DNA from: Escherichia coli
GTDB taxonomy: Bacteria; Pseudomonadota; Gammaproteobacteria; Enterobacterales; Enterobacteriaceae
Strand: one strand, 5' to 3'
Assembly (NCBI RefSeq): GCF_044647545.1
Contig: NZ_CP172818.1
DNA length: 64,000 nt
A model generated the notes under the pieces. The model ran no database searches, had not been told where the DNA came from, and saw nothing but the letters and a program-made list of their open reading frames with translations. Numbering within the stretch: position 1 is the first letter of the stretch; each line of letters starts with the position of its first letter. Position numbers and translations under genes: made by a program. This document shows positions 13,207-57,990 of this stretch, piece by piece.

Positions 13207-13232
13207 AAGAAGTGAGTTAAAACTCACTTCTT
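13207..13232. terminator. Perfect palindrome between convergent waaL and waaU (putative bidirectional terminator)
   Basis: aagaagtgagtt-aa-aactcacttctt inverted repeat overlapping the waaU stop codon. Confidence 0.4.
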
Positions 13233-14297
13233 ATCTATACAACTTAATCTCTTTACTGAATTAGTTAAAGTTTCAGTATCGATATCTTTTACCGTATATG
13301 TTGGGGATACTATTTGTATAGATTTATGATGATTCGGGGACCAAATTAAATGCGAGGGATATTCCGGAGTACGTGAATTAGGGTAAAATGCAAGCGTTGG
13401 TTTATGATAAGCCGCAGCGATATGAACAAGAGCTGTATCAACAGAAATGACAAAATCACTATACTTGGTCAACGCAACGGTATAAATAAACTCATCAAAT
13501 GGTAGTGTTTCGATTTCAAGTATTGGTATTGTCAATAAATCTTGCGGTAACCCGGTAAATATAATCCGATAATTTTCAAAGTGTGTTTTCACTTCTTGAT
13601 ATATAACTTTTATTTGCTCAAACGTAAGACGGCATATTTTTTTTGCACCTAATGGATTAATAATGACTATTCTTGTATCTCCAATAAATTCTTTTATTTT
13701 ATCTTCAACATCTACTGGTAAATGCAAGTCGTAGTTGGTGGAAAATTTACCCTCACCATAAATATGCTTCAGTATTTCTATTGCTCGTGTACTCATATGT
13801 TCTTTTAAACATTCATCGTGGGGATGGTAAAATGAATAGTAACGCTTATACCAATGATCAAAACCCAGAATGTAAGAATCTTTTAAACTTGATAATATTA
13901 AGCTATGCTTAAATGAGGGCATAGTTTCAAAGGGGTCTAATACAATATCGAACTGTAAATCCCGCAGATGCTTACATAGAGTAAGCATTTCAAGAAAACC
14001 GGTTGATTCTTTAATACAGAACTCAAATATATTTTTATTATTAGAGAGAAATTCCCCACCCTTTCTATTTGTGAGAAGAGTTATTTTAACCCCTTTACTA
14101 TAAAGTTCACGATAAATCGAACTTAATACAATTAGATCACCAAGTTTATTATTATCATGAATAATAAGGCATGATTTAACTTGTGCTGGATCTGTAATTT
14201 GATTATTTATTTTATTACGAAATAAAAAAGAAAGGAAATTAATCTTGATTTTGTTTATATAAAATCTTTTCTTTTTGTGAAAAGTTCCTAAGCGCAT
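13224..14297 (-). CDS. waaU: LPS core heptosyltransferase IV (RfaK/WaaU, K-12 type)
   Basis: 357 aa ORF, GT9-like; last gene of waaQ operon; length equals K-12 WaaU. Confidence 0.85.
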   Translation of the reverse strand: MRLGTFHKKKRFYINKIKINFLSFLFRNKINNQITDPAQVKSCLIIHDNNKLGDLIVLSSIYRELYSKGVKITLLTNRKGGEFLSNNKNIFEFCIKESTGFLEMLTLCKHLRDLQFDIVLDPFETMPSFKHSLILSSLKDSYILGFDHWYKRYYSFYHPHDECLKEHMSTRAIEILKHIYGEGKFSTNYDLHLPVDVEDKIKEFIGDTRIVIINPLGAKKICRLTFEQIKVIYQEVKTHFENYRIIFTGLPQDLLTIPILEIETLPFDEFIYTVALTKYSDFVISVDTALVHIAAAYHKPTLAFYPNSRTPEYPSHLIWSPNHHKSIQIVSPTYTVKDIDTETLTNSVKRLSCIDKK

Positions 14298-14329
14298 TTT
14301 TATACCATATTATTTTAGTTTCAGGATGA

Positions 14330-15181
14330 TTAATTAGCATAAGAATCGGTTGAAGTTCTATATTGCATTTTTTTTCTTGTCATATCTTTTGATTCTTCTG
14401 CACTGATGTCTTGAAGTTTAATAAATGGAATTACATCGTAAGAAATAGCTGTATCATCTGATAAATTATAAATATTAATATCTTTTACATTATCATGCAT
14501 AAAACGAAAAAATGGCAATATTTTGAATAAATCCCTACTTAATTCCGAGGGCATGGGATTTTTATTCTCATCATAGAAACGAGAACAGCTACCCGTTAAA
14601 TCAAGACCAGAACAAATAATCCGCGCATACTTAAGTGAATATGCGATTTGAATTGCAGCAAAGGCAATAGTATGGCATGAGCAATAACCAAGACTAATGT
14701 CCTTGCAAAATCCAACCAGACGACCTTTTTTAGACAACGGTACAGAGATCAGCAGTTCTTTGTGAATCTGTCTCAAAATATTAAATTTAATCTTCTTTAT
14801 AAAACCACCTTTTTCCCGACGGTAAAAGGACCGTAATACGAGGCAGTTCTGGAGGATATAAAGTTTATCTTCTTTGGAAGCGTGTTCATAAACGTCAACG
14901 TTTACTATGGTATAACGACTTCTCTGGCTAAATTTATAAAAATCATCACGACGCTGATGTAAAAATCGGACATCTGTAAGTACATATATAAAAGGAACGA
15001 TATTATTACTTAACAGATATTGCGCAGAACCATTGACAGCAATAATATCCTTTGTTCGTAATACTGACAAAGGTGTTTTTTGCGATGTAGGGCCCGAAAG
15101 AAAAATAATAACATCATCAGATATTTTATTTTCAATCAGGTTTTCAACATCTTTTTTGTCAATGTATCTAATATTCTTCAT
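14330..15181 (-). CDS. waaZ: LPS core biosynthesis protein WaaZ (KdoIII-associated)
   Basis: 283 aa ORF; position and length as in K-12 waa cluster. Confidence 0.8.
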   Translation of the reverse strand: MKNIRYIDKKDVENLIENKISDDVIIFLSGPTSQKTPLSVLRTKDIIAVNGSAQYLLSNNIVPFIYVLTDVRFLHQRRDDFYKFSQRSRYTIVNVDVYEHASKEDKLYILQNCLVLRSFYRREKGGFIKKIKFNILRQIHKELLISVPLSKKGRLVGFCKDISLGYCSCHTIAFAAIQIAYSLKYARIICSGLDLTGSCSRFYDENKNPMPSELSRDLFKILPFFRFMHDNVKDINIYNLSDDTAISYDVIPFIKLQDISAEESKDMTRKKMQYRTSTDSYAN

Positions 15182-15251
15182 GATAAACCTGTGAAATAAA
15201 TAACTCCGCTTAAAACTGTCCTGGTGAAGACATGTAATTGTGGGATTTTTT

Positions 15252-15950
15252 TTAGCGCGCTGGTTTCCCTTTCAAACGCCGCATAAAATTGCGCATTTTT
15301 TTACGATATACTAAAAGATAATAGCCTAGATCTCTAATCTCATTTTTAATACCGTAATGACGCTCTAAGTCAATACGATCTTTCGCTTTACGCTGCGCTG
15401 AAGCACGCTTTCCGGAGAGATCGATAATTCGAACCTCACCATTTTTTATAATGAAGTTACCACGATGGGGGTCGCCAGAAACCATGCCATGTTGATGTAA
15501 GGCATTAATTGATTGCTGAATTTTATTTTTTAGCGCATCATCAATATCGGGCATATCACACAACTCTATGCCATCAATATACTCGATGATCATGATATAA
15601 GTATGGACAAAACGTAAGGTTTTCCGTTCAGCCAATAAATAAAAGTCATTGAGTGTATTTAACCCTTCATTTCGTACTTTTTGGGTTTGCTCAAAAAGGC
15701 GTTCGTAATAATCACCTTTTAACAGAGACTTAAAGAAACGTTCGTTACGCTTAACTTTCGGAGAAAAAACCTTAAGAATCAATTTACCGTAATCGGTATC
15801 AATAAGCATAACTTTTGTATCATCAATAGAACGAAAAACCTTGATGATATTTATATTATAAGACAAGAAGTCATTTAATACATTGAGGTACTTTGAATTG
15901 TTTTCATCGGTAAAAACAACCAAGTCTTTGATCTTGCTCTTCTGAATCAT
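15252..15950 (-). CDS. waaY: LPS core heptose(II) kinase
   Basis: 232 aa ORF, kinase-like (HGDPHRGNF); position and length as K-12 WaaY. Confidence 0.85.
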   Translation of the reverse strand: MIQKSKIKDLVVFTDENNSKYLNVLNDFLSYNINIIKVFRSIDDTKVMLIDTDYGKLILKVFSPKVKRNERFFKSLLKGDYYERLFEQTQKVRNEGLNTLNDFYLLAERKTLRFVHTYIMIIEYIDGIELCDMPDIDDALKNKIQQSINALHQHGMVSGDPHRGNFIIKNGEVRIIDLSGKRASAQRKAKDRIDLERHYGIKNEIRDLGYYLLVYRKKMRNFMRRLKGKPAR

Positions 15951-15967
15951 AATAAACCAGTTAAATG

Positions 15968-16984
15968 TTATTTACGGTAATATTTTCGGCAAAGATAACA
16001 GACTCCTGCTATAATTCCTGAGATATAATGATGTTGCACTAAAAGATGTTTATATCTTTTTTTAAATTCAATAATTGATTTCGCATCTCGTGGAGAGTCA
16101 TCTTTCCAGGGGGAATTTTCTAAAGCTATTTTATAGTATTTTACCGATGGATAAATTGCCCATTTGTGCCACGGTTTAGTTGCACCTGTATAATGAATAA
16201 GAAGAGTACTTTCTGTAATCAGCTTTTTATAGTTTTGATGTGTTTTGTCTTTTAATTCACTTTTAATTGTATAAATTGTATTGTACTCACGAGGCAAAAA
16301 TAATGTCATCCCTTTCAGTAAGACATTCATAACATCCTGATCAGGGTATTTATAAACATTATCTTTACTCATAAGAATAGACAACGCTTTTTCTGTTAGT
16401 TTTGCGTCAGCCCATTTTTTTAAGTCTAAATAAACGACACCGGAATTAAAGTACTGCCCAAGTAATTCAGGATCAGACAACCTGGATACCGCCTTTTCTT
16501 GCATTGGCTCAACATCTTTAACAACAGCAGCAACCGCTCCATTTAAACCCAGATGTAATAGTTGGCTAATATCGCCTTTACAAACAACATCTGCATCAAG
16601 ATAAAGCAAACGATCAAGCGTTAAACCCAATAATTGAAATGCAAATAAACGGAAGTACATTGCTCTTGACCAGACCTGTGTACAAGGCAAGCACTGGAGC
16701 TTATCAGTGTTAATTCTATATAACGTGATTCTTAATTGGTTTTGCTCTGCAAGCTTTGCAATTTTTTGAAAAAAACCATCATTATAAACATCAGCAATAA
16801 TATAAAAATCAAGATTAATATGTCGATTATTTAGGACAATTGATGTGATGGAAACACCTACACCATCAAGATAATTAGCATCGACACCATAGGCAACATT
16901 TAAACATTCAGAAGTATTTATATTAGCTAGCCGAAAATCCCAGGCTTTAACTTTATCTATCTCTATGGCAGGAAATGAGTCCAC
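15968..16984 (-). CDS. waaJ: LPS alpha-1,2-glucosyltransferase (GT8; RfaJ, called WaaR in Heinrichs nomenclature)
   Basis: 338 aa ORF, GT8 family with DxD; position and length as K-12. Confidence 0.85.
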   Translation of the reverse strand: MDSFPAIEIDKVKAWDFRLANINTSECLNVAYGVDANYLDGVGVSITSIVLNNRHINLDFYIIADVYNDGFFQKIAKLAEQNQLRITLYRINTDKLQCLPCTQVWSRAMYFRLFAFQLLGLTLDRLLYLDADVVCKGDISQLLHLGLNGAVAAVVKDVEPMQEKAVSRLSDPELLGQYFNSGVVYLDLKKWADAKLTEKALSILMSKDNVYKYPDQDVMNVLLKGMTLFLPREYNTIYTIKSELKDKTHQNYKKLITESTLLIHYTGATKPWHKWAIYPSVKYYKIALENSPWKDDSPRDAKSIIEFKKRYKHLLVQHHYISGIIAGVCYLCRKYYRK

Positions 16985-17023
16985 AATGCTACCCTTATAT
17001 CATTACTTTATAGTTTCCCAGTT

Positions 17024-18043
17024 TTAATGCTTTATCTTTTCAATAAAATAAAAAAGATAGTTGCTAAATCCTTTTAGATATCTATGCTTTTTAAGCATAT
17101 GTTTTGCGCTATATCTTAATTGATTGCTATTGTTCGGTTTCAGCAACGCCGTATTCTTCCATGGCGAAGCATTTTTTGCCTCCATAAAGGCTTGTGATAC
17201 AGGATAATCCCAGGCCCAATCATGCCAGGGCTTGGTTGGCCCGATATAATGGATAAAAATAGTATCGTTGGTTACTGGGTTTATAAAGCTTTCTTTGAGT
17301 TGATAATTTAAGCTGAACTGGGTGTTATATTTAATATCAGCGAAAATAAGTTTATCCGCCAGCAACATATTTAACACATCCTGATCAGGATGTGTTATTT
17401 TTTTGATTATTTCTGGCTCATTTAGCATTGCAATAGCTCGTGCAGAAACCTGCTGAGCCGCCCATTGGGCAGTATTAATCAATAAAAAACCGGAGTTAAA
17501 GTAACCTTTAGCAATTCCCGCAACACCTAACGAATGGGCGCGTTTTTCCCACCAGTCAGCTTGCCCTTCTGTAACAACCATTGCGACTTTATCGTCAGGA
17601 AATGAGAAATTAATTAGTGGCTCAATAGTCCCCTGACAAATGATATCTGCATCCAGATAAAGGACTTTAGGCGCCTTATTAATAAAGTAATCTGCAATAA
17701 CAAAACGAAAATATATTGCATGAGTCCAATTCTTAGTGCTAGGCAATGAGCGCAGTCGATCACCATTAATCAGATATATTTTAATTCTGGTTTTATACTG
17801 CAACGCCAGGGCATCAAAATACTTACGATCATCATCACCAAAATAATCAGTAAAAATATGGAAACACAATCGACTTCCTTCATTATATTTTAATATTGAA
17901 GCAATCGAAATTCCGCAACCAAATAGAAAGTTTTTGTCAGTTCCATAAGCGATGTCCAGACAAAGATTTTCTGTTTCTACTTTATGATCATAATCAATAA
18001 CTGAATTAAGAAACTCAGTTTCCTGGAAAAACACCTGCTGCAT
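17024..18043 (-). CDS. waaO: LPS alpha-1,3-glycosyltransferase (GT8; RfaI/WaaO)
   Basis: 339 aa ORF, GT8 family, paralogous to waaJ; position and length as K-12. Confidence 0.85.
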   Translation of the reverse strand: MQQVFFQETEFLNSVIDYDHKVETENLCLDIAYGTDKNFLFGCGISIASILKYNEGSRLCFHIFTDYFGDDDRKYFDALALQYKTRIKIYLINGDRLRSLPSTKNWTHAIYFRFVIADYFINKAPKVLYLDADIICQGTIEPLINFSFPDDKVAMVVTEGQADWWEKRAHSLGVAGIAKGYFNSGFLLINTAQWAAQQVSARAIAMLNEPEIIKKITHPDQDVLNMLLADKLIFADIKYNTQFSLNYQLKESFINPVTNDTIFIHYIGPTKPWHDWAWDYPVSQAFMEAKNASPWKNTALLKPNNSNQLRYSAKHMLKKHRYLKGFSNYLFYFIEKIKH

Positions 18044-19122
18044 TATTTCCTCCGGGAAATAGCAGAAATAATTACCTTATGTAATCTATCGTAATACTTC
18101 GATTGGTAAAATTCATCGATCGACGCAGGAATTTTTTCATGTTCGATATGAATTTCACCTGCTATATATTTATTTAGAAGAGTTACAAAACCAGCAATAT
18201 CTCCCGGTTGATACAGATGGCCATTGACATCAGGTTGAATAATGTCAGCAGGCCCGGAGACACAATCGGCACTGATACAAGGAATCCCCCACGACAAGGC
18301 TTCAAGTAGGGTCATTGGGAAACCTTCAAAAGATGACGTGAGCAATAACGCACTCACTTTTTCAATATCTTGCTGGACCAATTCCCAGGGATATTGTTGC
18401 CAACCATACCAGACAATTCGATCATCAATATTTAATTCTCTACCATAAGCCTGGCATTTTTCGAAATCGGAGCCATCACCCAATACATGGAGTTTCCAGT
18501 TACCTTTCGCTTGTGATAAGCCATCAAGCAGGTCTTTAACTCTTTTCTGGCCTTCAAATTTCATACGCCCAACATAAATAAACGTTGCCGTTTCACCTTC
18601 CTCGGGCGCGGGAATGACTGAGTCTTTAGTTTCGACGGGATTAAAAATAACATTTATCGTCGATTCTGCTACACCTCGATTAATCATTTGCTGTTTAATG
18701 CCAGAGCTGATTGCTAAATGATAGTCGGCACAGGTGATATATTCAGCATGTTTTTTGTGATCTAAAGAAAAATGTGGCCATGAAAATACTGGCATATCAA
18801 TTCCTGATTTTTTACGTGCTTTTGCGGCAAACAGGCAGGAGATCACATCAATACAAATAACGATATCTGGTTGGTACTCCTGAAGCCATTTACTTAGAGC
18901 ATGAATATGTTTCGCCCGACGCAAAAAACCTAAACGAATATTGGAAAATGAACATGAGTATTTAATACCTTCCAGCCATCCCTTATCCATTTTGTCATTA
19001 CGACAAAAGAAAAACATTTCACTTTGGATATGTTGTTGCCTGAAGGTAGTAATAACATCACGGATGACAGTTTCCATGCCGCCAAATCCAGAAACAGCTT
19101 CGCCGATAAACGCTATTTTCAT
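18043..19122 (-). CDS. waaB: LPS alpha-1,6-galactosyltransferase (GT4)
   Basis: ORF 18043..19152 trimmed to MKIAFIG start giving 359 aa; GT4 family; position as K-12. Confidence 0.85.
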   Translation of the reverse strand: MKIAFIGEAVSGFGGMETVIRDVITTFRQQHIQSEMFFFCRNDKMDKGWLEGIKYSCSFSNIRLGFLRRAKHIHALSKWLQEYQPDIVICIDVISCLFAAKARKKSGIDMPVFSWPHFSLDHKKHAEYITCADYHLAISSGIKQQMINRGVAESTINVIFNPVETKDSVIPAPEEGETATFIYVGRMKFEGQKRVKDLLDGLSQAKGNWKLHVLGDGSDFEKCQAYGRELNIDDRIVWYGWQQYPWELVQQDIEKVSALLLTSSFEGFPMTLLEALSWGIPCISADCVSGPADIIQPDVNGHLYQPGDIAGFVTLLNKYIAGEIHIEHEKIPASIDEFYQSKYYDRLHKVIISAISRRK

Positions 19123-19165
19123 AGAAACTCTCATTAATTGAGTAAAACTCACTGTTTTAACGGTT

Positions 19166-20101
19166 TTATTTGTCTATAAAATCAGAAACAATCGTTGACA
19201 TCATTTTATCTGGACTGAATTTATATAAACTATCATAATCCATTGGTTTAACAGATGAGTTAATAAAATACTCTAACTTATCCCAATCATCATGACCTAT
19301 TATAAAAAAGCGAGATTCACTATAGATTTCTGAACCAAATACATTTATATTATTAGTAATTAATTTTTTATTGAAAAATAGTGCCTCAAGTATACGAAGA
19401 GTCCAGCCAGATTGGTTTTCTTTGGTTATATCAACAATTATATTAGCATTTAATGTTCTTCTAATATTCTCTTCATAAGATATTTGTTTTTCAATCAAAT
19501 ACTTTGAAGTCGTAGATGATGTCTTATCTTTGACAACATTAAAATCTAGCTTACATCCTAGTGTTGTTAATCTCTCGGCTAACTCATTAATTATTTGAAG
19601 ACGCCCTTTATCACGACCAAGGAAAAAACATATTGGCTGGCTGTTATTTTTGTCAGATAAACTATAATTTCTAATTTCATCCATTCCTATAGGAAAAAAT
19701 TGTTCTATTGCCTTGATCTTTTCATTCCCTATAAATCTATGCTCAAAATCATATATAATATCGAAATAATTCGCGTTATCAAGAATAAAATCTTCGCCAA
19801 CAGTATTTCTTAGAAGCAAAACTTTATGACAGTTAATATTTTTTAATATTTGTTTATTGATACCTTTATTAACAACACTGTCATTAATGATAATTATGTC
19901 ATCTTTTTTAATATCATTGAGGTAATGCTTGATGAATAATCGCCCCAGCCATGCATTATCCATCCCTATTTTTGATATTTTTTTATTAATCCAGTTATAT
20001 TTTTTTGGTGTTGTTATATTTTTTATCTTGTACTTTTTTTTCAGGTACTGAATCATTTTTAATTCATAATCTGCAACCCAATTTATAAAATAAATAGTCA
20101 T
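19166..20101 (-). CDS. waaS: LPS core biosynthesis protein WaaS
   Basis: 311 aa ORF, very AT-rich; position and length as K-12 WaaS. Confidence 0.8.
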
Positions 20102-20137
20102 AATAAAGTTAGTTCCAGTACATACTAATAAATATTT

Positions 20138-20935
20138 TTATAATCCTTTGCGTTGTGTTCGCTCTTTAATACGCTCGGCCTTAACGCTTGCCATGTTCAA
20201 TAAATTCTGTTCAAGAGACAATATTTTGCGTAAAGGCATCCCAAAATACACTTTCATAAACCGCCAGATATCCCGCTGAGTCAGGCCGATATTCATCGAA
20301 GAAAAATAAAGCCCAATAAGATCTTTATCGCGCCAACGACGTGGAACGCGCGTGCGAAGCTGCGCCCGGTGCAGGTCAATTACTGAAATTTTTAACTCCT
20401 CTTCCTTACCGGAAAAAGGCAAGTGCAGCAGGAAATGACAGATATAACAGTCACGGTGGTTAATGCCCGCAGCATGCATATCGCGCACCATCGTCGCGAC
20501 ACGCTTAATAAGCATACGCTTTACGCGAACATCTGGTGGGTTGGTCGCCCAGTCAGCACAGTAATCTTCCAGACTGATGGTTGGTGTCAGATCTTCGGTA
20601 ATAATAAACGAGGTTCTGGTCAGCGGATTAATGCCTTTTTCGCCGAATGCCACCCCATACATAGTATCAACGCCGACATCCCGCAGTCGATGAATCGCAT
20701 TCCATTCGCGGTCTGCGCCTAATACTGGCATCCGCAATGAGAGTAAATTTTTGATTATCTCTTTCAGGGTCGTGCCGCGATGCCATTTGAGAAAATAGCT
20801 TTTGCCCGCCATTTCAAAGCGCAGAGTGCGGCGAGTTTCCAGTTCACGAAATACCTCACCCTGCAAGGTTTTAACTTCCTCAAAAGGATCTTTACCGCGC
20901 CATAACGTGGCAAACGGCTCTTTAAGTTCAACCAT
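20138..20935 (-). CDS. waaP: LPS core heptose(I) kinase
   Basis: Trimmed to [14 protein letters not shown] start giving 265 aa; kinase motifs ([11 protein letters not shown]). Confidence 0.9.
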
Positions 20936-30070: not shown

Positions 30071-30108
30071 TATGACGTCCGGCATGATTATTCATCCAGC
30101 GAATATTT

Positions 30109-43793: not shown

Positions 43794-45185
43794 ATGTCTG
43801 TTTCCACCCTCGAGTCAGAAAATGCGCAACCGGTTGCGCAGACTCAAAACAGCGAACTGATTTACCGTCTTGAAGATCGTCCGCCGCTTCCTCAAACCCT
43901 GTTTGCCGCCTGTCAGCATTTGCTGGCGATGTTCGTTGCGGTGATCACGCCAGCGCTATTAATCTGCCAGGCGCTGGGTTTACCGGCACAAGACACGCAA
44001 CACATTATTAGTATGTCGCTGTTTGCCTCCGGTGTGGCATCGATTATTCAAATTAAGGCCTGGGGTCCGGTTGGCTCCGGGTTGTTGTCTATTCAGGGCA
44101 CCAGCTTCAACTTTGTTGCTCCGCTGATTATGGGCGGCACAGCGCTGAAGACCGGTGGTGCTGATGTTCCTACCATGATGGCAGCTTTGTTCGGCACGTT
44201 GATGCTGGCAAGTTGTACCGAGATGGTGATCTCCCGCGTTCTGCATCTGGCGCGCCGCATTATTACGCCGCTGGTTTCTGGCGTTGTGGTGATGATTATC
44301 GGCCTGTCGCTAATTCAGGTTGGGCTGACCTCCATTGGCGGCGGTTACGCAGCCATGAGCGATAACACCTTCGGCGCACCGAAAAATCTGCTGCTGGCAG
44401 GCGTGGTCTTAGCCTTAATTATCCTGCTTAACCGTCAACGTAACCCTTACTTACGCGTGGCCTCACTGGTGATTGCGATGGCGGCCGGATATGCGCTGGC
44501 GTGGTTTATGGGCATGTTGCCAGAAAGCAACGAACCGATGACACAAGAACTGATTATGGTGCCAACGCCGCTCTATTACGGTCTTGGCATTGAATGGAGT
44601 CTGCTGCTGCCGCTGATGCTGGTCTTTATGATCACTTCGCTGGAAACCATTGGCGATATCACGGCGACCTCTGACGTTTCCGAACAGCCAGTGTCCGGTC
44701 CGCTGTACATGAAACGCCTGAAAGGCGGCGTACTGGCAAACGGCCTGAACTCGTTTGTCTCGGCGGTATTTAATACCTTCCCGAACTCCTGCTTCGGGCA
44801 GAACAACGGGGTGATCCAGTTAACCGGTGTTGCCAGCCGCTATGTCGGTTTTGTCGTCGCGCTGATGTTGATCGTGCTGGGTCTGTTCCCGGCAGTGAGC
44901 GGTTTTGTACAACACATTCCAGAACCGGTTCTGGGCGGCGCAACGCTTGTAATGTTTGGCACCATCGCCGCCTCCGGTGTGCGTATCGTTTCTCGTGAGC
45001 CGCTGAACCGCCGGGCGATTCTGATTATCGCGCTGTCGCTGGCGGTCGGTCTGGGCGTGTCTCAGCAGCCGCTGATTTTGCAGTTTGCCCCTGAATGGCT
45101 GAAAAACCTACTCTCCTCCGGGATTGCCGCGGGCGGTATTACTGCCATCGTGCTGAATCTGATTTTCCCACCAGAAAAACAGTAA
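43794..45185 (+). CDS. xanP: Xanthine permease (NCS2 family)
   Basis: Trimmed to [12 protein letters not shown] start giving 463 aa; NCS2 transporter. Confidence 0.9.
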
Positions 45186-45305
45186 TTCACTGGCGGCGGT
45201 AAGATAATTACCGCCGCAGTCTCACCTCTTTCACCATTCCCGCCTTGAGGATTGCGCGTAAATCGTGCATAACTCCCTTATGTGCATTTCACGGGATGGA
45301 AGACC

Positions 45306-47006
45306 ATGAAATTTATTGGGAAGCTGCTTCTCTACATTTTCATCGCTCTGTTAGTGGTGATCGCTAGCCTCTATTTTCTTCTGCAAACCCGCTGGGGAGC
45401 AGAACATATCAGCGCATGGGTTTCCGAGAATAGCGACTATCATCTGGCCTTCGGTGCGATGGATCACCGTTTTTCCGCGCCATCTCATATCGTGCTGGAG
45501 AACGTCACGTTTGGCCGTGATGGCCAGCCCGCGACCCTGGTAGCAAAAAGTGTCGACATTGCGCTAAGCAGTCGGCAACTGACCGAACCACGCCATGTCG
45601 ATACCATCCTGCTGGAAAACGGGACGCTGAATCTCACCGACCAGACCGCGCCGCTACCGTTCAAAGCCGATCGTCTGCAACTGCGTGATATGGCGTTTAA
45701 TAGCCCGAATAGCGAATGGAAACTGAGCGCGCAGCGGGTAAATGGCGGCGTGGTTCCGTGGTCACCAGAAGCCGGTAAAGTGCTGGGTACGAAGGCGCAG
45801 ATTCAGTTTAGTGCCGGATCGCTTTCGCTCAATGATGTTCCTGCCACCAATGTACTGATTGAAGGCAGTATTGATAACGATCGCGTTACGCTGACTAACC
45901 TGGGTGCCGACATCGCCCGCGGGACATTAACCGGAAACGCGCAGCGTAACGCCGACGGCAGCTGGCAAGTGGAAAATCTGCGGCTGGCGGATATCCGTCT
46001 ACAAAGCGAAAAATCGCTAACCGACTTCTTTGCGCCATTACGCTCTGTCCCGTCGTTGCAGATTGGTCGCCTGGAAGTCATCGACGCTCGTTTGCAAGGT
46101 CCGGACTGGGCGGTGACCGACCTCGATCTCAGCTTGCGCAACATGACCTTCAGTAAAGATGACTGGCAGACACAGGAAGGTAAACTGTCGATGAACGCCA
46201 GCGAGTTTATTTATGGCTCGCTGCATTTATTTGATCCGATTATAAACGCGGAATTTTCCCCGCAGGGCGTAGCACTGCGCCAGTTCACCAGCCGCTGGGA
46301 AGGGGGCATGGTCAGAACGTCAGGGAACTGGTTGCGTGACGGGAAAATGTTGATCCTTGATGATGCGGCAATTGCCGGACTGGAATATACCTTGCCAAAA
46401 AACTGGCAACAGTTGTGGATGGAAACGACACCCGGTTGGTTAAACAACCTGCAACTGAAGAGATTTAGCGCCAGCCGCAATCTGATCATTGATATCGACC
46501 CTGACTTCCCGTGGCAGCTCACCGCGCTCGATGGTTACGGTGCCAACCTGACGCTGGTTACCGATCATAAATGGGGCGTCTGGAGTGGTTCGGCGAATCT
46601 GAATGCCGCCGCCGCAACGTTTAATCGTGTTGATGTCCGTCGTCCGTCGCTGGCGCTGACCGCCAACAGCAGCACGGTGAATATCAGCGAACTGAGTGCA
46701 TTTACTGAAAAAGGCATTCTGGAAGCCACCGCCAGTGTTTCACAAACGCCACAACGTCAGACCCATATCAGCCTGAATGGACGCGGTGTGCCGGTGAATA
46801 TTTTGCAACAGTGGGGATGGCCTGAATTACCGTTGACTGGCGACGGCAATATTCAGCTTACTGCCAGTGGCGATATTCAGGCCAATGTCCCGCTGAAACC
46901 TACGGTTAGCGGGCAATTGCATGCCGTGAACGCCGCAAAGCAGCAAGTGACTCAAACCATGAATGCGGGCGTAGTTTCCAGTGGTGAAGTTACGTCGACG
47001 GAGTAG
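45306..47006 (+). CDS. yicH: AsmA-family protein YicH
   Basis: ORF 45282..47006 begins with GTG; first ATG is at 45306 (MKFIGKLLLYIFIALLVV, N-terminal TM anchor); start is uncertain. Confidence 0.8.
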   Translation: MKFIGKLLLYIFIALLVVIASLYFLLQTRWGAEHISAWVSENSDYHLAFGAMDHRFSAPSHIVLENVTFGRDGQPATLVAKSVDIALSSRQLTEPRHVDTILLENGTLNLTDQTAPLPFKADRLQLRDMAFNSPNSEWKLSAQRVNGGVVPWSPEAGKVLGTKAQIQFSAGSLSLNDVPATNVLIEGSIDNDRVTLTNLGADIARGTLTGNAQRNADGSWQVENLRLADIRLQSEKSLTDFFAPLRSVPSLQIGRLEVIDARLQGPDWAVTDLDLSLRNMTFSKDDWQTQEGKLSMNASEFIYGSLHLFDPIINAEFSPQGVALRQFTSRWEGGMVRTSGNWLRDGKMLILDDAAIAGLEYTLPKNWQQLWMETTPGWLNNLQLKRFSASRNLIIDIDPDFPWQLTALDGYGANLTLVTDHKWGVWSGSANLNAAAATFNRVDVRRPSLALTANSSTVNISELSAFTEKGILEATASVSQTPQRQTHISLNGRGVPVNILQQWGWPELPLTGDGNIQLTASGDIQANVPLKPTVSGQLHAVNAAKQQVTQTMNAGVVSSGEVTSTE

Positions 47007-47315
47007 GTGCAGTAAACATCAATCTCTTCACATTCTGCTCCCAGCAAATGATCAAGATGCAGCAAATCAGCAATATTCTCCGCGCTTAACATCACACCCG
47101 CGCCAGCACGCTTCTCAACATTTATTCTCCATTGCCCCAGCCATTGCTCAAGTAAACGTAAATCACGTTGAATGGTTTTTTCCGAAACATTTAAATAGCC
47201 GCAATCGTAACAATAGTCGTATATTCCCTTCGAGGTAAAAGGAATCGTAATAATCTGTTTTGTCGCGAGGTAATCATTTGCATTTTTACCCTTATCACAG
47301 ATTAAGAAGCCCTAT
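46953..47315 (-). other. Possible gene remnant: open frame without an ATG start containing a DeoR-like helix-turn-helix motif
   Basis: Minus-strand frame reads ...CGYLNVSEKTIQRDLRLLEQWLG... (47141..47197), resembling the VSxxTIRRDLxxLE motif of DeoR-family regulators; frame overlaps the antisense 3' end of yicH and has no in-frame start that would give an ORF of 60 aa or more. Confidence 0.2.
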
Positions 47316-47577
47316 GAGGAAGAGCTTCAGTTGCCATCTCTGAGGGTAAATATAAAGCAGAATAATTTCACAACAATACTCAAAATATGTCCGTAACCCG
47401 GACAGTGATAAAACAAAGCAAGGCGGTTAAGGGATATTTTTCAGCACAGATCACATTTTCGTGATGAATAATCGTGATCATGCTCGCAAATACGATGGAA
47501 GAAATATTTATTACCAGATGTGAGATTATTTACCGGACACGACACAAAACCATTCGTATCCGGCATTCTTCAATAGA

Positions 47578-49896
47578 TTACAACGTAATTGTCAGCGCAT
47601 TCCCTTGAGGCGTCACCACCAGCCCCAGCTCACTTTCAGCCTGCGAACCGCCTTGCAGACCATTTACTTTCACAACATTGCGCAAGCACAGCGTCCAGTT
47701 CTTCGCCACGCCCGCACCATTCACAGTAATTGTGTTGCCAGTACGCGCCGCTTTCAGGGTGAAAAGAACGGAACCATCGGCAGCGGGCACTTCACAGATG
47801 GCTTCATGCCCGTCTTGCAGATTAAAGAGCTGGAATGCCGTGCCTTCGTGCCACGCGTAATCGGGACGTTGCTCGTTGTTGCCCAGCGCCAGTAGGGTGT
47901 TATCACGCACATAAACGGGTAGACTCAGGAAGCCGTGCTGCTGTTTATGCCAGCGACTACCATCGAGTTCATCGTTGTGCCACAGGTGTGTCCAGCGACC
48001 TTCCGGCAAGTAGAACTGCACATCGCCCGCTTCAGTGAACACCGGAGCAACCATCACGTTATCGCCTAACATGTATTGACGGTCAAGGTAATCACAAGCC
48101 GGATCGTCCGGGAACTCCATCATCATGGCCCGCATCATCGGCGTACCCCGGGCGTTTGCACGTGCAGCTTCACGATACAGATACGGCATCATGCGGCATT
48201 TCAGTTGCGTGAAGAAGCGCACCACATCACAGGACTCATCATCATAGGCCCACGGCACACGATAAGATTTGCTGCCGTGTAAACGGCTATGGCTGGAGAG
48301 CAAACCAAACGCGCACCAGCGTTTGTAAACGTGCGCCGGAGCGGTATTCTCAAAGCCGCCGATATCGTGGCTCCAGAAGCCAAAACCAGAAAGGCCAATA
48401 GACAAACCACCGCGCAGGCTTTCCGCCATTGATTCGTAGTTAGCGTAACAGTCGCCACCCCAATGTACCGGGAATTTCTGCGCACCGACGGAGGCCGAGC
48501 GGGCAAACAAGACGGCTTCTTCCTCGCCAACGGTTTCCTTGAGCACGTTCCACACCAGTTCGTTGTAGATGTACGCATAATGGTTATGCATTTTCTGCGG
48601 ATCGGAACCATCAAACCATTGAACATCGGTTGGAATACGTTCGCCAAAGTCGGTCTTAAAGCAATCAACGCCCATCGCGACCAGACCTTTCAGTTTGTCG
48701 GCGTACCATTTGCAGGCATCCGGATTGGTAAAGTCATAAATCGCCAGACCTGGCTGCCATTTATCCCACTGCCACAGCGAACCGTCCGGGCGTTTGAGTA
48801 AATAACCTTTCTCTTGTAACTCTTTAAAGACAGGGGATTTTTGCCCGATATAGGGGTTAATCCAGACGCAGATTTTTAGCCCTTTCGCTTTCAGGCGGCG
48901 GATCATCCCTTCCGGGTCCGGGAAAGTCAGCGGGTCCCACTCAAAATCGCACCACTGGAAGGCTTTCATCCAGAAACAGTCAAAGTGGAAAACATGCAGC
49001 GGCAGATTGCGTTCCGCCATACCATCGATAAAGCTGTTTACCGTCGCTTCGTCGTAGTTGGTGGTAAATGAAGTGGTTAGCCACAGGCCGAAGGACCACG
49101 CGGGCGGCAGCGCCGGACGACCAGTAAAACGGGTATAACTATCAAGTACCGCTTTCGGCGTCGGGCCGTCGATAACAAAGTATTCGAGATATTCACTCTC
49201 AACGCTGAACTGCACTTTGGAGACTTTCTCCGATCCCACTTCAAAAGAGACGCATTGAGGATGATTGACCAGTACCCCATAACCACGGTTAGTCATATAG
49301 AACGGAATATTTTTATACGCCTGTTCAGTACTTGTGCCGCCGTCCCGGTTCCAGGTCTCTACCGTCTGGCCATTGCGCACCAGGGCAGTAAAGCGCTCTC
49401 CCAGACCGTAAACTGTTTCGCCAACGCCAAGATCCAGCCGCTCAAACATATAATTTCGTTGATTATTCGTGTCCTGCACGTAGCCATTATTTTTCACCTG
49501 ACTACCGGTAATACGTTCGCCGTTGCGCAGAAAATCCAGTGACCAGAACTCACCTTTGCTGACACGCGCGCTTAAGTTGCCACTTTTAAACTCAGCGTAA
49601 CGTTCTGTGTTTTCGATTGTGACCTTCACGTCCTGCAAAATATTGAGCGGATAATGAGGACCGTTATTCAGCGCCCCCTGAAAATGCTCAATCCGTACAC
49701 CGACAATACCTTCCTGTGGGGAGAAAAAGCGCAGCGTAAATAAAGGCGTATCAAGCTGCCAGGTACGTTCACGCACATCACGAGGGGCAGCATAGACCAC
49801 CATTTCATTACCCTGCTCTTCAACCTCGAACACCTGAAGCGGGTGAATCAAATTGAGGCCAGGTTGAATCAACCAGTTTCCGTCGCTAATTTTCAT
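47578..49896 (-). CDS. yicI: Alpha-xylosidase (GH31)
   Basis: 772 aa ORF, GH31 catalytic region (WIDMNE-like KTDFGE); downstream of yicJ. Confidence 0.93.
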
Positions 49897-49905
49897 TGCC
49901 GTTCC

Positions 49906-51288
49906 TTAGTTCTGCACTTCTTGAGAGGTGAATTGTTGCTGGCAACGGCGTTTGCCCTGGGCCAGCTGTTCCATAACGGTTTTCAGATTGTGCGTCGTGA
50001 GCGAGTAGTAGCGTTTAGCGATAATCGCGCTCAGCAAGTAACAGATCGCCGGAACAATCGTGAATAGCGCAATAATGATGCTAATCGTGGCGCTGTTCTG
50101 CGCTTTTTCTGCCGCATCATATCCGCCATAAGCCAGCATCCAGCCGATAAGAGCGCCGCCGAAGGCCAACCCCAGTTTGAGCACAAACAGCGTGCCAGCA
50201 AAACTGATCCCGGTCAGGCGTTTACCATTGCACCACTCGCCGTAATCGACGGTATCGGACATCATTACCCACTGGATAGGTGTCACCAGTTGATGCAACA
50301 CACCAATCACGAAGATGAAGACAAACATGGTGATGCTGGCCTGCATAGGAACAAAGAACATCGCGAGGCTAATCACTGCCAGCAGGGCGTTCGTCCACCA
50401 GAAGATAGTGACTTTACATTTCCAGTCGGTCAGCGGTTTCGCCAGTGCGGAACCAATCAGGTTACCCACGCAATAAGTGGTAAGAAAAGCGACAAACACT
50501 TCCGGCGTACCCAAAATCCATGTGACGTAATACATCATCGCCCCGCCGCGTACGCATACCGCCAGAATATTGAAAATGGTTAGTAAACCGACAATACGCC
50601 ACTGGTCGTTTTGCCAGATATCACGTAAATCTTCCCTCATAGACGTCGTTGTAGGTGGTGCTTCAACGCGTTCTTTAGTGGTGAAGAAACAAAATGCCAG
50701 CATCATGAATGCCACCACGGAAAGGACCGCGATACCGCCCTGGAAACCGAGTGGTTTATTATCACCACCAATTAAATTAACCAGCGGCATCATCAGAACA
50801 GTAGAGAGCATGCCTCCCGCGGTCGCCAGCACAAAACGCCAGGATTGCAGCGAGATACGCTGAGTCGGGTCATTGGTGATTACACCACCCAATGCGCAGT
50901 AAGGGATATTGACGATGGTATAAAGTAAGGTAAGTAGGGTGTAAGTAATTGCTGCATAGATCATTTTGCCGTTCATACTGAGATCTGGCGTGCTATAGGC
51001 CAGTACACAGACGATCCCGAATGGCAGTGCGCCAAACAGTACCCACGGACGAAATTTACCCCAGCGAGAGCGCGTTCGATCGGCCAACAACCCCATGCAA
51101 GGATCGGAAATCGCATCCAGTGCACGAGCGACCAAAAACATGGTTCCGACAAATCCGGCAGGAATGCCAAAAATATCGGTATAAAAGAACATCATATATA
51201 ACATTACGTTATCGAAAATAATGTGGCTGGCGGCGTCTCCCATGCCATAACCAATTTTCTCTTTAACGGACAACACTTCACTCTTCAT
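49906..51288 (-). CDS. yicJ: Glycoside-pentoside-hexuronide family transporter YicJ
   Basis: ORF 49906..51345 trimmed to MKSEVLSVKEKIGYGMGD start giving 460 aa; GPH/MFS transporter. Confidence 0.9.
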   Translation of the reverse strand: MKSEVLSVKEKIGYGMGDAASHIIFDNVMLYMMFFYTDIFGIPAGFVGTMFLVARALDAISDPCMGLLADRTRSRWGKFRPWVLFGALPFGIVCVLAYSTPDLSMNGKMIYAAITYTLLTLLYTIVNIPYCALGGVITNDPTQRISLQSWRFVLATAGGMLSTVLMMPLVNLIGGDNKPLGFQGGIAVLSVVAFMMLAFCFFTTKERVEAPPTTTSMREDLRDIWQNDQWRIVGLLTIFNILAVCVRGGAMMYYVTWILGTPEVFVAFLTTYCVGNLIGSALAKPLTDWKCKVTIFWWTNALLAVISLAMFFVPMQASITMFVFIFVIGVLHQLVTPIQWVMMSDTVDYGEWCNGKRLTGISFAGTLFVLKLGLAFGGALIGWMLAYGGYDAAEKAQNSATISIIIALFTIVPAICYLLSAIIAKRYYSLTTHNLKTVMEQLAQGKRRCQQQFTSQEVQN

Positions 51289-51580: not shown

Positions 51581-51675
51581 GGAAGATCGTCGTCTCCGGT
51601 GAGGCGGCTGGACTTCAAATCCAGTTGGGGCCGCCAGCGGTCCCGGGCAGGTTCGACTCCTGTGATCTTCCGCCA
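51581..51675 (+). tRNA. selC: tRNA-Sec (selenocysteine, anticodon UCA)
   Basis: 95 nt GGAAGATCGTCGTCTCCGGTGAGGCGGCTGGACTTCAAATCCAGTTGGGGCCGCCAGCGGTCCCGGGCAGGTTCGACTCCTGTGATCTTCCGCCA; 8-bp acceptor stem, long variable arm, UCA anticodon. Confidence 0.97.
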
Positions 51676-52313
51676 ATTTGCCTCTTCTGACGTTCTCCAA
51701 CCCCTTGTAATACTGTCAATCCAGATATTTTCTACTGCTCAATATTCAATCGGCTTCAGGAATACCTGATCAAAAGTTTTGTGATGGACGATGAGCGACT
51801 GAAGAATCCGCCTGTCGGTTCTTCTGTCCTCGAACGCATCCGCGATATTCGCGCCAGCATGCGCCGTGTTTATTTGCAGGTGATTTGCCCCCCTGCTGAC
51901 TCTCAGCCAACTGTATCGCCATTAAGGTGAAGATGTTGTTTTACACGCCCCAGAACACCCTTTTTTTATACGACGATTCTATTCCTTTAACCGCTGGCGA
52001 AAAAAACTGACCTGTAAACTTCACCAATAATCAGACTGCCATCAAGATTAATTTGTTCATTTAATATATCAAATAAATTTGTTTTATTTTTACTATCAAA
52101 AATAGCTCATTGTCTTACTATAATTAATATATAAATTCGGTGATTAACTCTTAACATGCTTTTGCTAATAATCTCAATTGCTGGCCCTATAATATTGCGC
52201 TAGCATTGCTTTCTGGTTGTATCAGCGATACTCAAAAAATCTTAATACAATACTCATTCGACTGGTACTTATTTGTAACTCAGTTATATTTTGTCGCCCG
52301 GTGATTCAGAAGA

Positions 52314-55856: not shown

Positions 55857-55894
55857 ACCGCTACAACTACTGACCAACGCTTCTTTACCTGATA

Positions 55895-57085
55895 TCAGGA
55901 TTTCTTCATTTTCACCTTTGCGGTGACCAATAACGCCGTCAGCAACATCAATGTGCCGGACAACATCAACGGCGAAGTCAGACCAATATTATCCAGCGCA
56001 TAACCGCCGATTGCCGCGCCACAGGTATTAGCAAGCTGAATAACCGCCACCTGAATAGACCCGGCTTTTTCTGCCTGATCGGCCAGTGAGCGGGTGATCC
56101 ACGTTGACCAGCCGACAGGAACCAATGCAAAAGTTAGCCCCCAGATAATCGCCACGCCGGTAGCAACGATTTTATCGCTTCCCCACAACGTCAGCACCAA
56201 CGCACTCACAGCCAGTATTAACGGCGCGCCTGCTAAGGCCAGTTTTACCGAACGTTTAAGAATGAACGACGAAAGCGACGTACCAATAAAGCTGGCGATA
56301 CCAAAACTCAACAGCACCAGCGTTAAGCCATCCACGCCGAATCCCGCCAGGTTCATATACACCGGGCGAATATACGTGAAGAAAGCAAACTGCCCGGCGA
56401 AAGACATGAAGATGGCGATCATCCCTGCCATCACACCCGGACGTTGTAATAAGCGGAAAGTATTTTGTTTCTGATGCGAGGGTTCGCCTGGCAGCGAAGG
56501 CAATGATTTGATAATCCAGAAAATACACAGCACGCCCATCACCGCCGCCGCATTAAAGACATTGCGCCAACCGATAAGCTCGCCTAAAAAACTGCCCAAC
56601 GGTGCGGCAATCACCAGCGCAATAGAAACCGCGCCGAAGATCACCGACAGCGCCTTCGGCACCGTACGCGGCGGTACCAGACGCATGGTCAGCGACGCCG
56701 ACATCGCCCAGAACCCACCCAGCGCCAGCCCCAGACAGGCACGACCGATTAAAAGCAAACTGAATGAGTTAGCAAAGGAAACCAGCAAGCAGGAGAGCGT
56801 CAGCAAAACGGCAAACAAAATAACAACATAGCGGCGGTCAGTGGCCTGAATGGTCTGGGTAATAAACAAACTGGCAAACATTGCCACAAAGGCGGTCACG
56901 GTCACCGATTGCCCGGCAACCCCTTCCGAAATGCCTAAATCCTGGGCCATTGGCGTCAACAAACTGACGGGCAAAAACTCAACGATAATCAGACAGGCGA
57001 CGCAAAACGCCACCGAGAAAACGGCTGACCAGTTCGGTCGGGTGATGGCATCCGCGCCGCGGTTTTCGGCAATAAATTCACTCAT
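55895..57085 (-). CDS. nepI: Purine ribonucleoside efflux pump NepI (MFS)
   Basis: ORF 55895..57133 trimmed to [19 protein letters not shown] start giving 396 aa. Confidence 0.9.
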
Positions 57086-57349
57086 GGTGTTACCCGTGGC
57101 ATGTTTCAGGGGAAAAGCCGACCACTTTAACATTGAAATGTGTGACGCATTTAACGTTTTTGCAACTTTTACGGTGTTGTGGGAAAAGTTCGAGGCTGCT
57201 CGAAGAAATAAAAATCATAGGGCAAGGTGATATGCATTTTCGCAATGGGGTTGGGAATAAGGGATAAAGTATTCATTGTGATATACTTTAATAACAGGAT
57301 CTCAACGATATACGCGTGTTTAAAACCAAATATTTTGCAAGGGAAGCCA

Positions 57350-57990
57350 GGTCTCAGCAAAAAAGAAAAAAAGTTGCCGGTTTAGAAACGGAACAAGGTA
57401 AAGCTGATGTACTTGGTGGTGGCGTTTTTAAAAAGCGCCTTCACCGAAATCGTGAGCGTGCAATTATTCTGCAAAAGGGGAAAAAAATTGTTTTTACACT
57501 TTTTTATATAAAAAAAAGGATATGTCAAAAATAAATAGCAAGAAACGGCTTGGTTTCCGTAAACTCCAAAACATTTTCCCCTCCCTACCAAAACCCAAAC
57601 AAAAAAAAAGATTAAAACAAAAAAACAAACAGAAATCCCCTAGACCCGAAAAAAAAAAATAAAAAACCCCCGCTTTTGGGCATTCCCAACCCCGCGGCCC
57701 GGGTTTCCCCCCCCCATGCTTTTTCTCCCCAAAAAAAACGTACTTTTACAAAACCCCCCCCACCAGCACGCAAAAACTACAACCCGGTGAAAAAAAAAAA
57801 ACACGGGAAAAAAAAAAAAGGAAGCCACCCCCCTTCGCCCCCATCCCAAAACCAGCGTTTCAACAGCACAAAAAAAGGAAAAGGGGCGCAAACCCCCCAG
57901 GGGTTCTTTAAAAATCCCCAGCATGGTGGAAAAAAAAGGGGGGGGGGGGGGGGAGTAAAAAAAAAAGAAAAAAGTCATACCAGCCCCAAT
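57350..57990. repeat. Low-complexity homopolymer-rich tract (A8-A12, C5-C8 and a G19 run); probably sequencing or assembly artifact
   Basis: Direct inspection: successive long poly-A, poly-C and poly-G runs, strand-asymmetric composition, no coherent coding frame; unlike any other intergenic region in the window. Confidence 0.6.

Follow-up and report, generated by a model that had tools for sequence, protein, structure and literature searches.

The 64-kb stretch of DNA analysed here (the window) carries yicH (AsmA family) on the plus strand at 45306-47006, as a 566-aa allele whose TAG stop lies three codons before the K-12 stop. Convergent with it on the minus strand, at 47578-49896, is the alpha-xylosidase gene yicI. 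The yicH-yicI gap therefore spans 571 bp (47007-47577; yicH ends at 47006 and yicI at 47578), and it is overlapped by a minus-strand open frame of 119 codons (47311-46955, stop codon 46954-46952) that includes YLNVSEKTIQRDLRLLEQWLG. The first codon of the ATG/GTG/TTG type in this frame is the GTG of '...GVMLSAEN', with none earlier. The first-pass annotation had drawn attention to a frame of about 120 codons lacking an ATG start on the yicJ-yicI strand at 46953-47315; such a frame is present, and these coordinates are correct within one codon. Scans of the gap for known RNAs (Rfam, E up to 1) and for promoters gave no match, and an NCBIfam scan of the 119-codon frame returned one weak match without meaning. 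A single terminator-like hairpin with a T-tail was found by scanning, at 47404-47388, downstream of yicI. A further hairpin/terminator region lies beside the yicI stop (47531-47577); it forms the right edge of the DNA specific to the frz operon (see below) and is present in a diverged form in frz-negative alleles (K-12, HS-01 and other empty sites).

Alignment with other genomes indicates that the open frame very probably carries the 5' end of frzR, codons 1-89 (267 nt), the regulator gene of the frz PTS sugar operon. The fragment occupies 47017-47283 on the minus strand, encodes the first winged helix-turn-helix (HTH_11) domain and is cut off at 47017. Positions 47017-47600 share 99.5% DNA identity with genes that are annotated 'BglG family transcription antiterminator' and adjoin yicI in other E. 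coli. Against the near-identical genome FDAARGOS_497, positions 47017-50000 are 99.9% identical from frzR codon 89 onward, while 45000-47016 are 100% identical to the yicH side of the same locus. The fragment also lies where frzR lies, directly downstream of yicI and facing yicH, an arrangement shared by FDAARGOS_497, S88, Seattle 1946, Citrobacter spp., Phytobacter and Superficieibacter, and it agrees with frzR in start codon, ribosome-binding site and upstream region.

In the open frame, regulator sequence in its proper frame is limited to 61 codons in the middle (47200-47017, corresponding to FrzR residues 29-89). Ahead of them, 37 codons represent the frzR leader plus codons 1-28 read out of frame, and the last 21 codons plus stop (46952-47016, minus strand) are antisense to the yicH 3' end and the next 10 nt. 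What had been taken for an overlap of the fragment with antisense yicH is mere read-through past the deletion junction at 47016/47017, and these 21 codons are not regulator sequence. The native frzR ATG is intact at 47283-47281, in a frame other than the open one, and coincides with the annotated CDS start (position L001 12268). Pairwise comparison with FDAARGOS_497 located a 1-base deletion at 47201 (GCCGGC to GCGGC, 47200-47202, codons 28/29), at a base that is kept in all four of the other frz+ alleles compared. It is because this deletion shifts the frame, and not through any wearing away at the 5' end, that the 119-codon frame has no ATG; the native frame now terminates after 30 aa (MQMITSRQNRLLRFLLPRREYTTIVTIAAI followed by a stop).

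Upstream of the ATG, an alignment of five frz+ alleles defined the frzR leader and upstream (promoter) region at 47284-47530 (minus strand), which is specific to the frz island and absent from K-12-type genomes. It contains an AAGGG ribosome-binding site at 47293-47289, a spacer that is one base short (T-run at 47284-47287) and an extra C at 47381. Within 365 nt the remnant differs from FDAARGOS_497 by three 1-base indels and no substitutions, and we estimate the probability of such clustering, relative to other non-coding DNA, at p ~0.009.

Repair of the frameshift gives a translation that matches FrzR residues 1-89 without a single difference. On the unrepaired frame HTH_11 scored 23.4 bits (E=5.7e-5), slightly below its 25-bit cut-off, and HTH_DeoR 14.6 bits (E=0.029; cut-off 21); on the repaired 89-residue N-terminus HTH_11 reached 39.6 bits (E=4.8e-10). 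Judged by these profile scores, the helix-turn-helix likeness reported for the open frame is not a product of chance. The family assignment that accompanied it did not hold. HTH_DeoR (PF08220) reaches 21.6 bits (cut-off 21) both on the repaired N-terminus and on intact FrzR, and is outscored by HTH_11 on each (39.6 and 53.4 bits, respectively); moreover, the intact 517-aa orthologue has no match to DeoRC (PF00455) even at E up to 1.

The operon begins with frzR, followed by genes for EIIA, EIIB, EIIC, two aldolases, a ROK kinase and a cupin isomerase, and this annotated context is present in FDAARGOS_497, S88 and Seattle 1946. In the literature the operon bears the name frz and is placed in the genomic region 'yicH..yicI'; it is known from extraintestinal pathogenic strains of E. 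coli (cited as Rouquet et al. 2009, J Bacteriol 191:4427). In the window, no frz structural genes follow the frzR fragment. Since only codons 1-89 are present, the reading frame is shifted and the remainder of the operon is absent, the fragment cannot make a regulator and could yield at most a 30-aa peptide. The first-pass annotation was thus right to see a non-functional fragment of a sugar-related helix-turn-helix transcription regulator, here at 99.5-99.9% DNA identity to frzR; its association with the yicJ-yicI operon is replaced by membership of the frz PTS operon, of which the gene is the first and the rest is missing here.

An intact gene at the same position in relatives, for which a comparison had been proposed, does exist. 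Between yicH and yicI, the frz operon is present in ∼1,600 of 5,426 complete E. coli genomes (∼30%; the left end of the island in 1,606 and the frzR 5' region in 1,602), and full-length frzR is found there in Citrobacter, Phytobacter and Superficieibacter as well. Partial frz alleles exist at low frequency. Among the 83 complete genomes closest to the window, 82 contain the frzR 5' region. The exact YicH protein of the window occurs in 7,286 collection blocks, and in all 27 contigs that were read frz adjoins yicH. Usually frz is described as an accessory region associated with ExPEC. The order yicJ-yicI-frz-yicH-xanP is nevertheless kept in Citrobacter, Phytobacter ursingii, Superficieibacter and Escherichia sp. 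MOD1-EC7003, and because of this synteny across several genera frz-negative E. coli are probably deletion derivatives. Presence and absence of frz are intermixed among flank haplotypes; the locus therefore recombines in nature.

Relative to FDAARGOS_497, the window lacks 6,718 bp at 47016/47017, comprising the remainder of frzR, EIIA/B/C, the two aldolases, the ROK kinase, the cupin isomerase and a hairpin after yicH. BLAST breakpoints and the junction sequences place the join within 47012-47026, where GTAAA is followed by CATCAATCTC (read further to the right, GTAAA followed by CATCAATCTCTTCACA; the junction 31-mer is GGTGCAGTAAACATCAATCTCTTCACATTCT). The 10-mer CATCAATCTC occurs once in the 7.2-kb frz island, precisely at the right endpoint, and GTAAA plus this same 10-mer follows yicH in 8/8 frz-negative alleles read. 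We infer that two independent endpoints would coincide in this way by chance with a probability <1e-6. No direct or inverted repeat capable of mediating a deletion was found at the endpoints, merely short weak matches, and a stem joining both endpoints, suggested by eye, was dropped as a weak AT-rich 7/9 match only.

Both flanks of the junction are of the FDAARGOS_497 type, and the rare TAG of that type is kept 12 nt from the join. This rules out ordinary homologous import or allelic replacement from a frz-negative strain. The yicH allele of the window was found in no frz-negative genome, the best frz-negative yicH end being 98.2% identical. The junction itself was absent from all 5,426 complete genomes, from species-representative genomes and from JGI metagenome contigs, and none of the products of junction-spanning or junction-specific ORFs (85, 47 and 30 aa, and 110 aa without the frameshift) is on record.

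Taken together, the comparisons make it probable that the frzR truncation is a by-product of how the 64-kb sequence was built rather than of natural decay; the earlier word 'decayed' may thus be wrong. A lineage that normally carries frz would have been fitted to a K-12-like structure devoid of islands, with loss of the large lineage-specific insertions, and the join may have fallen on the sole 10-mer common to the island-free allele and the frz island. The remainder of the window is consistent with such a process. It equals FDAARGOS_497 save for two isolated SNPs and for differences at four further accessory loci (kbl-rfaD, the waa cassette, the retron site and the eilA island), where the junctions either are noisy or lie close against the borders of homology. 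Three joins were checked directly (waa-left, slmA-pyrE and yicS onward), and no complete genome matches across them. In addition, a toxin-antitoxin locus at 57180-57989 decays progressively into runs (G16, A12) and then returns abruptly to 100% identity; within it the frequency of a base being the same as the previous one rises and T is lost. Mutagenesis of the DGR type was ruled out for this stretch, which shows indels and homopolymers instead of adenine-specific changes. A pile-up smoothing model was also considered for it; the linear interpolation used was too crude to register both sequences. A reference-guided or constructed sequence would explain together the junction at the 10-mer, an allele seen nowhere else, the four noisy junctions and the garbled stretch. 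The sizes of the insertions form a pattern that also favours it: 504 nt were kept, 810 nt were kept and garbled, and 1,289, 6,718 and ∼23,000 nt were dropped.

Several observations count against a construction artefact. The join itself is clean, and the 504-nt remnant, with no more than three 1-base indels, is ungarbled, unlike the 810-nt toxin-antitoxin stretch. The micro-sequences at the empty sites fit no single reference compared, HS-01 matching at the waa cassette and not at the retron or eilA sites. No specific pipeline can be named that reproduces every feature, partial frz alleles occur naturally at low frequency, and indels limited to non-coding or pseudogene DNA are also expected from natural relaxed selection. 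Alternatively, a living FDAARGOS_497-like strain may have undergone a genuine recent 6.7-kb deletion, leaving a real frzR pseudogene that later gained its three 1-base indels under relaxed selection. Here the 10-mer match would come from short-homology recombination with frz-negative DNA, anchored in yicH and joined at the 10-bp identity (homology-facilitated illegitimate recombination). We regard this as possible and rather unlikely. It would account well for the clean junction between intact neighbours, and each of the three indels is a derived state within DNA that the deletion would have freed from selection; the window's other small indels are likewise intergenic, and a locus that recombines in nature and has a few partial alleles also speaks in its favour. 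Yet donor-type SNPs are absent from yicH as close as 12 nt to the junction, the clustering of three indels with zero substitutions within 365 nt (p ~0.009) counts against it, the allele is in none of the collections searched, and the garbled 57180-57989 stretch and the four other noisy junctions are left unexplained.

Two further readings look to the structure of the frz-negative alleles, which is that of a frz+ allele minus two gaps, of 6,718 bp and ∼504 bp, with the 10-mer left between them. A combined proposal would hold that frz is ancestral at the yicI-yicH locus in Escherichia/Citrobacter, that K-12-type strains keep a 10-bp relic of frzR (codons 87-90, CATCAATCTC) from a two-gap deletion, and that the window allele is real and has the first gap only, as a surviving intermediate or a recombinant at the relic; taken as a whole, we find it improbable. 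Still less credible is an old intermediate proper, in which a frz+ ancestor gave rise to the K-12-type state by two successive gaps (6,718 bp, then ∼504 bp) and the window preserves the first by descent. The two-gap structure fits such a history, as does the synteny across genera, from which absence would be derived; the 10-mer agrees with frzR of E. coli and not with that of Escherichia sp. MOD1-EC7003 or of other genera, and frz+ and frz-negative alleles alike show an A/C variant at its first base. An old allele should, however, have diverged, and the remnant and its flanks have no substitutions relative to a modern frz+ genome (frz-negative alleles differ by 2-9% from the frz+ allele in the adjacent 230-400 nt), nor is it carried by any other genome searched.

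The original proposal, understood as decay of a DeoR-family repressor that formerly governed the yicJ-yicI alpha-xyloside operon, can draw on an HTH_DeoR score just above cut-off, on the same-strand position of frzR immediately after yicI and on a functional link that reportedly exists between yicJI and frz, but we consider it very unlikely, and refuted as to family by the domain architecture, given the far better HTH_11 score, an intact 517-aa protein with Mga, two PRD and PTS_IIB domains and no DeoRC, the place of the gene at the head of the frz PTS operon in every genus examined, and the K-12-type strains that retain yicJI without frzR.

The biological weight of the remnant itself is small, as it is a truncated copy without plausible function, and frzR, the frz operon and its patchy distribution in E. 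coli are already known. For annotation, it should be labelled as a fragment of frzR (a PRD/Mga-type regulator) and not as a DeoR pseudogene or a yicJI regulator. The window appears to be hybrid or badly reconstructed, with missing accessory islands, noisy junctions and one garbled stretch, and other findings within it that rest on junctions, indels or low-complexity stretches warrant suspicion. A small evolutionary point concerns the synteny of frz across genera, by which the frz-negative state of E. coli, rather than the presence of the operon, would probably be the derived one.

The closest known system is FrzR itself (PGAP 'BglG family transcription antiterminator', for example WP_022646284.1), with which the fragment shares its locus, 99.5-99.9% DNA identity and, once repaired, identical residues 1-89; it differs in having 89 of 517 codons, frameshifted, without the Mga-HTH, the PRDs, the EIIB-like domain or the downstream operon. 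Intact FrzR consists of HTH_11 (residues 7-63), Mga-HTH (100-169), two PRDs (matched in two stretches, 105 bits) and a PTS_IIB-like domain (24.4 bits; cut-off 23.6), and among solved structures its closest relatives are AtxA, AcpB and, as the best match, the LicT PRDs (E=2e-6). From this domain content FrzR is classed as a PRD-containing transcription activator of the Mga/MtlR/LicR type. Its layout of two HTH domains, two PRDs and a C-terminal EIIB-like domain is that of the MtlR/LicR/ManR class and of the Mga/AtxA/AcpB 'PRD-containing virulence regulators', and the intact gene adjoins PTS genes presumably under its own control. In intact FrzR the two N-terminal HTH domains would bind DNA and, by analogy with MtlR, LicR and ManR, PTS-dependent phosphorylation of the PRD and EIIB-like domains would switch the protein; in the family, such control acts through phosphorylation of PRD histidines by HPr/EIIB. 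As a difference from these regulators, intact FrzR has no detected EIIA-like C-terminal domain, and the window fragment keeps the first HTH only, with no Mga-HTH, PRD or EIIB-like domain.

With the RNA-binding antiterminators BglG, LicT and SacY, intact FrzR has the duplicated PRD module in common, but it gives no match to the CAT RNA-binding domain and carries a DNA-binding HTH at its N-terminus instead; the PGAP name 'antiterminator' is owed to the PRDs rather than to the mechanism. DeoR-family repressors (DeoR, GlpR, SrlR, FucR) possess a similar winged-HTH recognition helix, the SrlR match being weak (E=0.003), whereas intact FrzR is without the DeoRC sugar-phosphate-binding domain, is twice as long and follows another architecture and control logic.

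The gap between yicH (plus strand, ending at 47006) and yicI (minus strand, ending at 47578) measures 571 bp and holds, as the first-pass annotation had recognised, a start-less open frame of about 120 codons on the minus strand. The frame spans 47311-46955 (119 codons), closes with a stop at 46954-46952, contains the YLNVSEKTIQRDLRLLEQWLG originally quoted, and offers no ATG, GTG or TTG until deep within. When 46900-47600 was compared by megablast with 5,426 complete E. coli genomes, 47017-47600 matched, at up to 99.5% identity, a 'BglG family transcription antiterminator' gene adjoining yicI in ∼1,600 genomes; K-12-type genomes lack this DNA altogether and have a yicH-yicI spacing of only ∼50 bp. 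In strains FDAARGOS_497, S88 and Seattle 1946 this 517-aa regulator gene is the first of eight clustered minus-strand genes that separate yicI from yicH (followed by PTS EIIA, EIIB and EIIC, two class-II aldolases, a ROK kinase and a cupin-type lyxose/mannose isomerase), and not a member of the yicJ-yicI operon as had been proposed. The cluster corresponds to the frz operon described by Rouquet et al. (2009), and a 2026 ExPEC genome comparison enters frz as the genomic region 'yicH..yicI'. By sequence comparison, the fragment is securely identified as the 5′ end of frzR, encoding the HTH_11 domain, frameshifted and truncated.

Against FDAARGOS_497, a near-identical frz+ genome, the window is 100% identical over 45000-47016 and 99.9% identical over 47017-50000, with zero substitutions and three 1-base gaps; between these blocks FDAARGOS_497 has 6,718 bp more. 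The frame lacking an ATG had been suggested to be a decayed gene, yet the native frzR ATG is intact at 47283-47281 (minus strand) in another frame, and the start-less frame exists because a 1-base loss at 47201 (GCCGGC to GCGGC on the minus strand, codons 28/29) fuses the native frame with a second one. Translation from the native ATG yields MQMITSRQNRLLRFLLPRREYTTIVTIAAI followed by a stop, while restoring the missing base yields FrzR residues 1-89 exactly and then antisense yicH past the junction between 47016 and 47017. Two further small changes exist: the T-run in the spacer that separates the ribosome-binding site from the ATG (47284-47287) lacks one base, and an additional C sits upstream of frzR at 47381. 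All three changes are derived, since the four other frz+ alleles compared share one state at each position and the window alone departs from it. Genuine FrzR sequence makes up only 61 of the 119 codons, and in a Pfam scan of the unrepaired frame HTH_11 (E=5.7e-5, 23.4 bits), HTH_DeoR (E=0.029) and Mga (E=0.13) all fell below the cut-off.

The position of the junction is odd when set against genomes without the operon. Every frz-negative allele read (K-12 BW2952, Z1322HEC0002, YD786, A30, strain 123, MARGA_4, HS-01 and others) has the structure yicH-GTAAA-[C/A]ATCAATCTC-G-CCGGG(hairpin)-yicI. The 10-mer CATCAATCTC occurs once in the 7.2-kb frz island, at frzR codons 87-90, and this site is the exact right endpoint of the gap in the window; the left endpoint is the exact left edge of the island. 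Because both endpoints match, the window holds the left half of a two-gap structure separating frz-negative from frz+ genomes. A chance match was rejected, as several thousand positions were available to each of the two endpoints. Allelic replacement of the ordinary kind was rejected too: yicH keeps the FDAARGOS-type TAG at a distance of 12 nt from the junction, and among frz-negative genomes no yicH end exceeds 98.2% identity.

Between the yicH gene and the terminator of yicI, all frz-negative alleles examined retain the 10 nt CATCAATCTC or AATCAATCTC (e.g. 1617-1627 of locus L005), for which the counterpart in the window is 47017-47026. These 10 nt are identical to frzR codons 87-90, with the same C/A variant found among frz+ alleles, and they may be a relic of frz loss by deletion in K-12; the chance of such a match within the 7.2-kb island is ∼1%. 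The yicH allele ends at 47002-47006 with a TAG three codons earlier than in K-12 and S88 (566 aa versus 569 aa), a variant shared with FDAARGOS_497 and very frequent in public assemblies (7,286 collection blocks). At the 3′ end of yicI (47578-47900), compared with frz-negative alleles, divergence in the final 230-320 nt reaches 9% from one allele to another. Flank haplotypes do not sort by presence or absence of frz but are intermixed, indicating that the yicH-yicI locus has recombined repeatedly.

Similar irregularities mark the other accessory sites of the window, which elsewhere matches FDAARGOS_497 with only two isolated SNPs in ∼55 kb. Between kbl and rfaD, relative to FDAARGOS_497, 5 bp are deleted at 8861 and 1 bp is inserted at 8917, at the exact point where K-12-type homology breaks owing to the yibB insertion. 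The waa (LPS core) cassette at 11863-20241 is of the K-12 core type, identical to that of strain HS-01 but for one base (11877), and its flanks are 100% FDAARGOS_497-type, with switch points within 48 nt and 20 nt of the homology edges; no complete genome carries this combination. Between slmA and pyrE (30072-30102), the 1,289-bp retron-type reverse-transcriptase insertion of FDAARGOS_497 is absent, and a noisy, degraded version of the usual empty-site bidirectional terminator hairpin is mixed with the FDAARGOS right flank. Between yicS and nepI (55857-55903), the ∼23-kb eilA/iatC island of FDAARGOS_497 (type III secretion translocon genes, eilA, inverse autotransporter iatC) is absent; the first bases after the yicS join are noisy and unlike the common empty-site allele, with a mismatch at 55903. 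A direct search found no complete genome matching the window across the waa-left, slmA-pyrE or yicS-onward joins. Between nepI and yicN lies a toxin-antitoxin locus of RelE/ParE plus HTH type (57180-57989). Intact in FDAARGOS_497, it decays here from left to right into homopolymers with T lost (C9 at 57707, A12 at 57790 and 57808, G16 at 57938), before 100% identity returns abruptly at 57995. This stretch looks like a consensus or generation artefact rather than biology, and the two 112-aa ORFs listed in it are meaningless. Relative to the island-free structure, the insertions sort by size: those of 504 nt and 810 nt are kept (the latter garbled), and those of 1,289, 6,718 and ∼23,000 nt are dropped. 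Elsewhere in the window, a short internal piece of a rhuM-family gene (∼51754-51915, converted coordinates) comes after tRNA-Sec (selC, 51581-51675); PGAP annotates it as a pseudogene in FDAARGOS_497 and HS-01, and it was probably left behind by an island that integrated at selC long ago.

It is doubtful that the truncation exists in any cell, and we favour, with some reserve, an artefact of sequence construction. Data from this lineage fitted onto an island-free, K-12-like structure would account for all the odd sites together; the route could have been a consensus (reference-guided or pile-up) or model-based reconstruction of some kind. The 10-mer would be explained as well: the 10 nt left orphaned in the reference would presumably be aligned to their sole exact match inside the island, dividing the insertion into pieces of 6,718 nt and 504 nt. 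That a real deletion or recombination took place recently is distinctly less probable. The junction allele was not found among the 5,426 complete E. coli genomes (1,602 with the frzR 5′ region, 1,606 with the island left end), in species-representative genomes or in JGI metagenome contigs; four ORF products spanning or specific to the junction were not found in the gene index, and 82 of the 83 closest complete genomes carry the frzR 5′ region. That the junction is an old intermediate allele is highly improbable. A natural clone-mate of FDAARGOS_497 with all accessory DNA here lost or swapped, zero flanking SNPs and also a homopolymer-smeared locus is very unlikely. Whether artefact or natural, what remains here is part of a known gene in a known operon.

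Intact regulators at this position are common in relatives, contrary to the refuting condition set for the proposal, under which no relative would have a full-length gene there. Scanning one genome per species identified full-length FrzR orthologues of 70-79% identity in Citrobacter (many species), Phytobacter, Kosakonia, Superficieibacter and Buttiauxella, and one of 96% in Escherichia sp. MOD1-EC7003. By tblastn with neighbouring proteins, the order yicJ-yicI-frzR...cupin-yicH-xanP was found in Citrobacter, Phytobacter ursingii, Superficieibacter and MOD1-EC7003, with the yicH-xanP side also kept in some Kosakonia and Phytobacter genomes. This synteny across genera suggests that frz is old at the yicI-yicH locus and was lost from frz-negative E. 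coli. The proposal of a decayed sugar regulator survives in part, as a dead fragment with intact homologues at the same site, and fails as to family, operon and the reason for the missing ATG. The entire operon is kept in several of these Enterobacteriaceae genera (loci L009-L029), in most of them beside yicH at the same chromosomal position, with yicI opposite where the locus extends that far. Across genera, PTS EIIC retains 94-97% protein identity versus only 70-79% for FrzR. The regulator evolves much faster than the transporter.

Intact FrzR comprises HTH_11 (residues 7-63, 53 bits), a Mga-type HTH (100-169, 50 bits), two PRDs (105 bits) and a PTS_IIB-like domain (422-498, 24.4 bits); a domain search found neither a CAT RNA-binding domain nor the DeoRC domain. 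Its closest solved structures by sequence are the LicT PRDs, AtxA and AcpB, and NCBIfam places its N-terminus in the AcpB/EbpR/MafR subfamily. On these grounds FrzR is classified with the DNA-binding, PRD-containing activators such as Mga, MtlR and LicR. As known for the family, such activators are switched by PTS-dependent phosphorylation of their PRDs and EIIB-like domain. The DeoR family, to which the fragment had been likened, resembles FrzR in the winged HTH only, where HTH_DeoR (21.6 bits, cut-off 21) is well outscored by HTH_11.
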